The notes: generated from the letters alone by a model not told the origin. 64,000 nucleotides of DNA from an uncultured Chlamydiae bacterium (GCA_963730605.1 CAVSSM010000002.1:160001-224000), one strand, 5' to 3'; shown: positions 25,894-28,800, counted from the first letter of the stretch. A program made the numbers and translations.

Positions 25894-28800
25894 ATGAAAA
25901 AAACTCACGATACTACGACCTCCTTTTTAGAAGAGGCGAAGGCGTTGCCGGCAAGCAGAAAAGGCGGCGGCGGCGCGAAAGAAACGGCTCATACCGTCGT
26001 CAAACGGAATGGTACCCTTGTCCCTTTCAGGCGAGAGCGGATTTACCGCGCGATCGAAGCTGCGTTCCGCGATATGAAAAACGTCCCAGCGCCGGCTCTC
26101 TTCGATTCGGAAGTTCAGCAAAAGATCGAACAAGTCACCGACATCGTAGTCAAACAAGTCCTCCACCTCGCATCCAAAGGGGCTTCCTTGACAGTCGAAG
26201 GGATCCAAGATGTGGTGGAAGTGACCTTGATGAAAAACGGCTGCCACGATGTCGCGCGCGACTACATCATTTACCGAGACAACCGGAAAGCGAGCCGAGA
26301 AGGGTCGGCTCTGCAAACTGAAAATCTACCGCAGAGACAAGACCGACCCCCGCCCGTTTCAATCCGATGAAGATCGCCTCTTCGATCGAGCGGGCTTTCC
26401 GCAGGGCCAGGCAAATCGAAGAGCAAACGCCCGACGAAGTAGTCGGAGCCGTCAATATTTTGACCAAGAAGATCGTCGGCCGAAATGTGCGGATCTCGCA
26501 GCGAAAGGCGATGTCCTTTACATCGATATGATCGAAGACCGGATCGAGCGGGAACTGATGATCGGAAAAATACTTCGACGTTGCGAAGAATTATATCCTG
26601 TATCGGGCTGAAAAAGAGAAACGGCAAGCAACGCTCACGGCTCTTTCTCACCGTCGATGAAAACGCCCCCGTCCGCCGGTTCGAGATCGCGACTGACAGC
26701 GGCAAAATCACCATCAATGAGAAGATGCTCCGCAGCAAACTCGCCTTCGCTTGCAGAGGGCTAGACAAAACTAGTCTCGATCGAAGAGCTTCTCGAAACG
26801 AGCGTCACCCAATTTTACAGCGGCATGAAAGAGACACGAAGTCGACTTGGCCAATATTTTCGCTGCTAAATCAAAAATCGAGAAAGAGCCTGCCTATTCG
26901 CAGTCGCCGCAAGGCTCCTTCTCGATGTTCTTTACCGGGAAACCATGGGCCTTCCCGCTTCCGATGCAACGCTCCAGAAAGCGCACCGCCAGTATTTCAA
27001 GAAATATATAAAAGCAGGCATTTCGTTAGAGCGCATCTCCCCCAAGCTGCTCGATTTCGATCTTGACGAACTGGGGATGGCGATGGATCTTTCCCGGGAC
27101 GATCTTTTCAGTTATCTCGGCCTGCAGACGCTCTACGACCGTTATTTCATCCACAGCGAGTCACCGAAGGCTCGAAACCCCGCAAATTTTCTGGATGCGG
27201 GTGGCCATGGGCCTTGCCCTCAACGAAGGGGAGCAGAAAAACAAACGGGCGATCGAGTTCTACAATGTCCTTTCCGAATTCTATTTCACCTCGAGCACCC
27301 CGACGCTCTTCAATTCGGGCACGCCCCATTCGCAGCTCAGCTCCTGCTATCTTTCGACCGTCATGGACGACCTCCATCATATCTTCAAAGTCATTGCCGA
27401 CGATGCGCAGCTCTCCAAATGGGCGGGCGGCATCGGCAACGATTGGACGAACGTCAGGGCCACAGGCGCCCGGATCAAAGGGACAAACGGCACGTCGCAA
27501 GGCGTCATCCCATTCCTCAAAGTCGCAAACGACACGGCCGTAGCAGTGAATCAATGTTTTGATCCGGATACGAGGATTTTTACCGCACAAGGGGTTCTGC
27601 CGATCTCGAATGTGGACATTGGCGATCTCGTTCTCGGCGTCAGCGGCACGTACCGAGAAGTTACAGACCGGTTTATCTATAATCAAAAAGATCCGATGAT
27701 CGCCATCGAAATCAAACACTCTTTAGACCCAGTTCGTGTCACCACAGCCCACCCCTTCTATGCGATCCAGGGCGTGCCGATGGAACAGGCCAACTCGAGG
27801 ACGATGGAATGGCTGGCCAAAGGCAAAATCCGGACGGGTTGGATCGAAGCAAGCCAACTTCAACCGGGCGATTATGTCGCGCAGGTTATTCCCAAAGAAG
27901 TGACCGTAGTCCCTGAATTGATAGAAGATGATGCTCGGCTTTATGGAATCCTGCTCGGCGATGGACACCTCTCGAAAGAAGGGATGCCGTGGGGCGTATC
28001 CGGCAATCCGCAAAATGACGGACATCTAGAATTCGTCAGAAAATATCTGAGAGACCGGGGCATCCATTTTTGGGAAACGGGACGAGGCGAAACCTATCTC
28101 CAAATTCATTGGGCATCGGGGCGAGGGGCCGTCCAAGACGGGGCGACAGGCCGCTTTATTTCGGCCGGAGCGCCTACGCTTCCCTTTGAACACGACGATT
28201 TGTATGACGAAACCAAATGCAAGCGGATCGCGCCACGGTTCGCCCATCTGCCCAAGCCGCAAGCTCTTGCCATGCTCCAGGGGTTATTGGAAACAGATGG
28301 AAATGTTTCCCGCGGCAAGGAACTGACCTTTAGCAATACCTCGCTACAGCTTATTGAAGGGATCCGCTACCAGGCTCTTCGCTTCGGCATTCCTACAGTC
28401 GGAAACCGCCGCGTAAGAAAAAACGACCATATAGCCCATAGGTCCGACGGGTCGGTTGCTGAGTTTAAAGGAGAGACGACTTCTTATGATCTCCGCATCC
28501 CCGCTTTTGCGGAACTTGCCGAAAAAGTCGGCTGCAAACCCATCCATAAACACAACTGGCTCACGACCGAGGGTTTCGTCTGGAGCCGCGTAACCTCGAT
28601 CAAAAACGTCCCCGAGACTGCTTTTGTCTCTGATCTTGTGGTCGATGGCGACAAGTCTTACATGACGACCGCGGGACTTGCCCATAACGGCGGTAAGCGT
28701 AAAGGCGCAATGTGCGCATACTTAGAGACTTGGCACCTCGACATCGAGGAATTTCTCGAACTGCGCAAGAATACGGGCGACGAGAGGCGCCGCACGCACG

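Follow-up and report, generated by a model that had tools for sequence, protein, structure and literature searches.

A homing-type intein with glycine at +1 in the specificity loop of a chlamydial ribonucleotide reductase, and a proposed aminolysis route for its splicing

We analysed a window of 64,000 nucleotides from an uncultured Chlamydiae bacterium (GCA_963730605.1, CAVSSM010000002.1:160001-224000) in which nrdA and nrdB, encoding the two subunits of a class Ia ribonucleotide reductase (RNR), follow one another on the plus strand and nrdA contains an intein. No Rfam match was found between positions 24000 and 34000 of the window. The features are listed below; a slash within a sequence marks an intein-extein junction.

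25894..30252, plus strand: nrdA, class Ia RNR alpha subunit with ATP cone, all-alpha and barrel domains (Pfam; tblastn)
27345..27347, plus strand: Cys of QLSSC in the N-extein (sequence; alignment to solved NrdA chains)
27552..27554, plus strand: Gln-1, the loop 2 glutamine equivalent to E. coli Gln294 (sequence; alignment; loop 2 account in PMC4728125)
27555..28688, plus strand: intein of 378 aa, Hint domain plus dodecapeptide (LAGLIDADG) endonuclease (translation, Pfam, AlphaFold model, Foldseek)
27555..27557, plus strand: Cys1 (sequence; homologue alignment)
27741..27752, plus strand: block B, T63-x-x-H66, with P67 next
27939..27965, plus strand: LAGLIDADG motif 1 (10 letters) with acidic residue D136 (sequence)
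28275..28301, plus strand: LAGLIDADG motif 2 (10 letters) with acidic residue D248 (sequence; Pfam)
28632..28664, plus strand: block F, in which F4 is Asp (D360) and not Cys, and F13 is Lys and not His, followed by S-Y-M (sequence)
28683..28688, plus strand: block G, His377-Asn378
28689..28700, plus strand: start of the C-extein, Gly+1-Gly+2-Lys+3-Arg+4 (sequence, homologues, contigs)
29121..29123, plus strand: Cys of SNLC in the C-extein (sequence; alignment to solved NrdA chains)
30263..31363, plus strand: nrdB, RNR small subunit, intact and directly downstream of nrdA (PF00268, E 8e-91)

We take the QLSSC cysteine to be the likely equivalent of E. coli Cys225, and the SNLC cysteine presumably corresponds to the E. 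coli thiyl-radical residue, Cys439.

In this assembly, nrdA carries about ten 1-nt indels, all of them outside the intein, and an intact homologue (P0003) tiles the locus across several frames by tblastn. Eight of the indels (26477, 26489, 26561, 26650, 26764, 26835, 26899 and 29335) are missing from contigs of public runs, as is a ninth (27160/1) in the data of run X5, and some of the contigs without the indels are otherwise identical to the window. Since these contigs lack them, the frameshifts are probably assembly errors; the contigs aligned to nrdA are of low depth, and other strains are a possible source of them. The stretch 26300-27200, together with position 29335, combines indels with clustered substitutions and is probably a poorly polished part of the assembly.

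Positions 27555-28688 translate without a stop into 378 residues (CFDPD...GLAHN) that split the nrdA product at AVAVNQ/GGKRKGA. Intein-free alleles were found in two genomes of the same genus, where 15 residues were read at the site; the intein boundaries are therefore exact and the glycine is the host's native residue, and exact removal of the in-frame insert restores the host NrdA sequence of these empty alleles. A search among longer proteins gave 887 matches to the intein, 120 of which were listed. Among those listed, the VNQ/C junction, as placed by BLAST-mapped boundaries, is present in all 119 complete homologues, Cys1 is kept in all 119 that align from residue 1, T63 and H66 are found in 119 of 119, and His377-Asn378 and the HN/GGKR junction each recur in 120 of 120; block F position F13 is Glu in 113 of the 119 close homologues listed. 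Both LAGLIDADG motifs carry their acidic catalytic residues, as expected from sequence for a homing intein. Pfam identifies LAGLIDADG_3 (PF14528, E 9e-10), with Hint_2 and Intein_splicing matches that are weak and under their cut-offs. The AlphaFold model of the intein (pLDDT 86.8, 38-row alignment) matches PI-SceI (E 7e-19), TliVMA and PI-PfuI by Foldseek (range E 7e-19 to 3e-13), while its extein junction residues are of low confidence and give no usable junction geometry. The empty alleles and the listed homologues thus confirm what a sequence-only reading had proposed for VNQ/GGKRKGA, namely an intein with Cys1, a TxxH block B, two LAGLIDADG motifs, a terminal His-Asn and glycine at +1.

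The Gly+1 codon itself (GGC, 28689-28691) is well supported. A contig from run X4 crosses it with 0 differences over 28472-28729, and a contig from run X5, which belongs to another study, crosses it with a single difference over 28610-28999 that does not fall at a G. Over 72 locus rows, including 3 duplicates, the +1 glycine is encoded by GGC in 31, GGT in 21, GGA in 14 and GGG in 6, and since all four glycine codons are used, no single edit would yield Ser or Cys. Sequencing error or editing at +1 is ruled out by the contigs of two studies, the homologues and this codon variety. Ser, Cys or Thr in reads at 28689-28691 had been named as grounds for refutation; the contigs of both studies keep Gly.

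In alignments, the site of the empty allele falls at Q442/G443 of P. aeruginosa NrdA (5IM3) and at Q288 of human RRM1; the barrel is interrupted by the intein near Pfam position 72 (of 523). In the account of loop 2 given by Zimanyi 2016 (PMC4728125), yeast Gln288 is equated with E. coli Gln294, loop 2 comprises E. coli residues 292-301 and connects two sites that lie ~15 A from each other at the dimer interface, and its backbone and side chains (Gln294 and Arg298) contact effectors and substrates. The same account reports that E. coli R298A is nearly inactive and that Q294A has impaired pyrimidine activity with purine activity kept. Arg+4 of the C-extein is likely the equivalent of Arg298. 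The alignments and this account thus place the insertion where it had been proposed to lie, in the substrate-specificity loop; given the role of that loop in reading effectors and substrates, and the near-loss of activity in R298A, a nick at this point should be costly.

All three intein classes, as defined in PMC2807308, PMC7765530 and PMC4031507, need a side-chain nucleophile at +1, so that the rule invoked at the outset, Cys, Ser or Thr at +1 for canonical splicing, holds for classes 1 to 3. The window intein has the Cys1, block B Thr and His, block F Asp, terminal His-Asn and Hint fold of class 1, with the block F His absent, but at +1 it and all 120 listed homologues carry Gly rather than Cys, Ser or Thr, and the canonical block G branched intermediate is impossible without a +1 side chain. 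Class 2 (KlbA type, with Ala1 and attack by Cys+1) is ruled out by Cys1 and Gly+1, and class 3 (WCT triad, F4 Cys, Ser or Thr at +1) by an F4 position that is Asp in 132 of 134 Gly+1 copies, both classes being taken as PMC2807308 outlines them. PI-SceI, TliVMA and PI-PfuI, which are class 1, share with the window intein the fold, domain layout, Cys1, block B Thr and His, F4 Asp and His-Asn, but differ in having Cys, Ser or Thr at +1 and a block G branched intermediate. Type A bacterial intein-like domains (BILs; Dassa 2004 and Aranko 2013, as reviewed in PMC4031507) resemble it in Cys1, the terminal His-Asn and the missing +1 nucleophile; in contrast, they lie in hypervariable regions of non-conserved proteins according to PMC7765530 and mostly cleave according to PMC4031507, whereas the window intein occupies a fixed site in conserved NrdA and embeds an endonuclease. 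One BIL structure, PDB 2LWY, gives a weak sequence match (E 0.067). The intein is thus outside classes 1, 2 and 3 by its +1 residue and outside the BILs by its context; it carries a homing-type endonuclease and probably operates as type A BILs do.

Several catalogued inteins occupy the same site. The RNR intein of CroV (InBase; YP_003970087 / YP_003970182; supplement 3 of PMC5784728), YVNQ/CF...VHN/, belongs to the window's family by full-length homology (24% identity, E 1e-38), but it keeps the block F His and is followed by SGRRKG; with Ser at +1, it fits canonical class 1. Supplement 3 of PMC5784728 also lists loop 2 inteins with Gly+1 in Pandoravirus inopinatum, P. salinus, P. dulcis and Cedratvirus A11, with the junctions DQ/C...GGGKRKG (C-junction before GGGKRKG) and NQ/C...HN/GGRRKG; these differ from the window copy in their viral hosts. 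The word 'glycine' occurs 0 times in the main text of that paper (Green et al. 2018), which does not comment on the Gly+1 viral copies already tabulated in its supplement. The NrdA intein of Azotobacter chroococcum and A. vinelandii (aa 442-800, LAGLIDADG-3), a candidate for the same site compared here through its description in Robson et al. 2015 (PMC4465626), has a start that fits the 427-449 starts of the listed proteobacterial-type homologues; its hosts differ in also carrying NrdJ, and that description does not mention the +1 residue. The relevant parts of PMC10710043 and PMC4760082 hold nothing further on the +1 residue. A mechanistic study of a Gly+1 RNR intein was not found in the literature searched, a scope outside which most subscription journals fall. 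An InBase entry is labelled 'Avin RIR1 BIL', which would presumably mean that its curators had seen the missing nucleophile.

The intein is present in 41 of 301 sampled Chlamydiota genomes, and a genome scan added at least 22 further loci. An alignment-based scan of viral sequences found 25 loci, including 6 giant-virus metagenome-assembled genomes (MAGs), where a single intein protein as query gave 0 matches. One of the viral contigs (L063:3013-3540) has a short copy of ~175 aa whose two ends lie in different frames, reflecting either a frameshift or a split. No viral contig matched the T4-type junction pattern HN/GG[IV]R. Scanning metagenomes for the C-junction alone yielded at least 120 stretches, of which 46 are cut by contig ends, 6 have an upstream stop or frameshift and 68 were parsed, 1 of them wrongly; C1, T63, H66 and P67 are present in all 67 correctly parsed copies listed. 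A HMMER search gave 1013 matches, the best 150 of which reach distant copies, the CroV intein among them. Annotated phages had only 3 distant matches, at other sites or unannotated, and plasmids had none. Named hosts of the homologues include Simkaniaceae, Rhabdochlamydiaceae, Burkholderiales and Thiothrix, with the cultured Thiothrix nivea DSM 5205 among the carriers, and empty and intein-bearing alleles coexist within one genus.

The genome containing the window (83% complete) has one RNR gene and no match to NrdD, the class III, anaerobic RNR. Among 40 other Chlamydiota carriers, the intein-bearing gene is the only RNR found by PF02867 matches in 39, and NrdD was found in 0 of 40. Against the essentiality of this RNR counts the absence of a PF02867 match from 31 of 300 genomes of the phylum; five genomes of the window genome's own family (G024, G035, G059, G063 and G111) have no nrdA or nrdB match and carry a full NrdD in 5 of 5 tested, and in these the RNR class has therefore been swapped. 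In the one exception, a genome of the same genus as the window's (G197), a partial second nrdA and a full nrdB lie at a contig end (L331, G197:C7:27000-28906), through duplication or contamination. Extein dN/dS is 0.012-0.107 in the 14 closest carrier pairs, from which host NrdA is judged to be under strong purifying selection; few pairs underlie these dN/dS values, saturation affecting most synonymous distances.

Parsing at both junctions gave 71 representatives, 53 with Gly+1 and 18 with Ser+1, a split from a parser that admitted only G or S at +1 and a terminal Asn. In an unforced listing some fragments end otherwise (HN/EKRNG in P0252, HN/AVS in P0150, no HN in P0129, P0140, P0146 and P0230), and by sequence these look like broken copies. 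Variant catalytic residues occur in a few Gly+1 copies: Ser1 in P0170, and a penultimate Arg in P0139 or Lys in P0257. Giant-virus contigs often carry intein-free Q-S-G alleles (119 matches), so that Ser+1 copies sit where the native residue is Ser. Two copies, P0153 (HN/SGKRAG) and P0159 (HN/SGRRKG), have Ser+1 in bacterial-type exteins, apart from the CroV-type Ser clade, and neither has Pro67. Pro67 tracks Gly+1, being present in 123 of 134 Gly+1 copies (and absent from 11) versus 0 of 18 Ser+1 copies, a correlation limited by the fact that the Ser+1 copies form only two clades. The block F His is replaced by Glu, Ala, Pro or Lys in the bacterial branch and is kept in 35 of 134 Gly+1 copies, mostly viral-type.

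In FastTree trees that left out near-duplicate loci and most chlamydial loci, explaining the Ser+1 label takes 2 changes on the intein tree (102 rows) versus 9 on the extein tree (92 rows), 3 of the latter forced by strong branches, and the extein tree spreads the intein family across very different RNRs. The difference in changes suggests that the intein moved among hosts, with loss as another possible source of its patchiness. In a rooted Hint-only tree, the Ser clade of CroV type lies within the Gly copies. Constraining either all Gly copies or all Ser copies to group gave trees with better scores, neither of which was rejected (p-AU 0.78 and 0.92), and the tree data favour neither direction of change between Ser+1 and Gly+1. 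The expectation that giant-virus RNRs carry similar insertions was correct, as they hold the same family at the same site. The accompanying idea of direct exchange in a shared protist host fared less well: the window intein shares 62-84% identity with copies from chlamydiae and proteobacteria versus 24-31% with those of CroV and giant-virus MAGs, the trees place it among bacterial copies, and CroV, the best-known viral copy, has Ser and not Gly at +1. As the window copy falls with its chlamydial and proteobacterial relatives and lies far from the giant-virus copies, these sequences do not support recent exchange between viruses and chlamydiae.

The splicing residues outlast the endonuclease. 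An endonuclease acidic residue is lost in 10 of 36 chlamydial copies, and C1, T63, H66, D360, H377 and N378, which the parser did not force, are kept in 10 of these 10. Median dN is 0.74 for the endonuclease versus 0.44 for the Hint domain in pairs of decayed copies, and 0.30 versus 0.31 in pairs of intact copies; one unsaturated decayed pair has dN/dS of 0.17 for Hint and 0.42 for the endonuclease. Across the whole family, one or more acidic residues are missing from 41 Gly+1 copies, all 41 of which keep H66, and P0261 (aa 469-647) is an endonuclease-free mini-intein of 179 aa with Gly+1. Since the splicing residues persist through endonuclease decay, both junctions appear to be under selection to react, a pattern equally expected from ligation and from cleavage at both junctions.

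We propose, with a probability of roughly 0.6 and by analogy with type A BILs, that the nitrogen of Gly+1 accepts the N-extein from the Cys1 thioester, giving splicing without a +1 side-chain nucleophile. Cys1, aided by T63 and H66, would form a thioester with Gln-1, and Asn378, aided by H377 and D360, would cyclise and free a C-extein with an unhindered Gly-Gly amino terminus. The two exteins, which jointly build one alpha/beta barrel, would keep this amine beside the thioester, and aminolysis would restore the native Gln-Gly bond; in a variant order, the Gly amide nitrogen would attack first to give an imide, which Asn would then resolve. Attack by a Gly-Gly amine has analogies in sortase-type glycine nucleophiles and in conformationally assisted ligation. 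Given how widely this junction recurs, in many bacteria as well as giant viruses, NrdA is likely rejoined, by chemistry that may be new for such inteins. The same order of thioester formation, Asn cyclisation and free-amine attack has been put forward for type A BILs, as Mills et al. 2014 (PMC4031507) describe, which agrees with the earlier remark that aminolysis-type ligation had been proposed for bacterial intein-like domains. Among the 134 Gly+1 copies, no extra conserved Cys was found in the intein, and F4 is Asp in nearly all; with no conserved alternative nucleophile, the glycine nitrogen is what remains. A residue peculiar to Gly+1 copies that could account for efficient aminolysis was not found, and the loss of the block F His in the bacterial branch counts against this mechanism.

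The two possibilities first named for this locus, non-canonical splicing or an enzyme working as cleaved fragments, appear from the sequences to be the right pair. Under the second, hydrolysis of the Cys1 thioester and Asn cyclisation would release the intein and leave RNR fragments that stay folded and active, nicked in loop 2. This double cleavage requires exactly the residues that are conserved, so that the conservation of C1 and N378 would follow from it just as well as from ligation. In type A BILs, the review in PMC4031507 reports that cleavage products outweigh splicing and that one BIL spliced only after its +1 residue was changed to Cys; phage Aeh1 has an NrdA that, according to PMC2677866, works as two chains without ligation, though it is split by a free-standing HNH gene and has no intein; and E. 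coli Q294A retains purine activity (PMC4728125). However, the nick would fall between the equivalents of Gln294 and Gly295, in a loop whose backbone, in the same account, contacts effector bases and positions Arg298. The loop 2 residues of carriers match those of intein-free alleles exactly, including in endonuclease-dead copies, so no compensation for a nick is seen, and tolerance of it would be needed in each of the very different RNRs on the extein tree. We consider double cleavage the main rival, though clearly less probable than aminolysis.

The N-extein might instead be taken by the epsilon-amine of Lys+3, by a Cys or Ser farther downstream, by a residue within the intein or through a relay of cellular thiols, which would give a branched or relayed product; Lys+3 (99 of 134 Gly+1 copies) and Cys+9 (72 of 134) are common in bacterial copies. 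However, 35 of the 134 have G, R, V, N or S at +3 and 62 lack Cys at +9, so that neither position offers a family-wide nucleophile in the C-extein; the WCT triad is absent and F4 is Asp; and a branched link would leave loop 2 unrebuilt. We regard this route as quite improbable. Slightly more doubtful still is incomplete processing, in which RNR would be active with the intein in place or attached at one end. The two termini of a Hint fold lie close to each other and loop 2 has flexibility, both of which would favour a tolerated intein, but C1, H66, H377 and N378 are kept even after endonuclease decay, and there is little room for a 42-kDa domain in a loop that connects two such close sites at the dimer interface. 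The reading as an artefact or dead gene (Gly+1 a sequencing error or recoded, or nrdA a pseudogene killed by the intein) draws on the frameshifts of the window nrdA and on broken frames or stops in four other carriers (G132, G260, G275 and L078), but is largely refuted by the contigs and codon variety at +1, the absence of the indels from contigs, homologues with intact 1.4-kaa frames and the purifying selection on the exteins.

These inteins may amount to a fourth mechanistic class of true inteins, a reading to which we give even odds: homing inteins that ligate efficiently via the glycine nitrogen with the folded host as template, spread through bacterial, phage-like and giant-virus RNRs. 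An RNR site without Cys, Ser or Thr would then have been colonised, with the natural Ser+1 relatives as a canonical control. The rule of Cys, Ser or Thr at +1 bounds both the presumed insertion sites of inteins and their use in protein ligation. With a large natural family departing from this rule within a conserved and needed enzyme, the outcome is either efficient nucleophile-free splicing, and with it a new class and a tool for ligation at Gly junctions, or an RNR that works with a cut specificity loop, and either would surprise specialists. Cultured carriers, the 179-aa mini-copy and the Ser+1 relatives at the same site make the question testable.

Other inteins were seen alongside this one. 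Extra inteins at Cys sites are apparent in the NrdA proteins P0086, P0092, P0108, P0112, P0128, P0175, P0192, P0201 and P0243, as judged by lengths near 1700 aa or by extra Hint starts after SNL or LSS. The window's own genome has a second intein, in DnaB (G000:C10:23397-24653, minus strand; RESG/C...HN/SLEQD), which has a canonical Ser+1 and lies in an intact frame of 936 aa.
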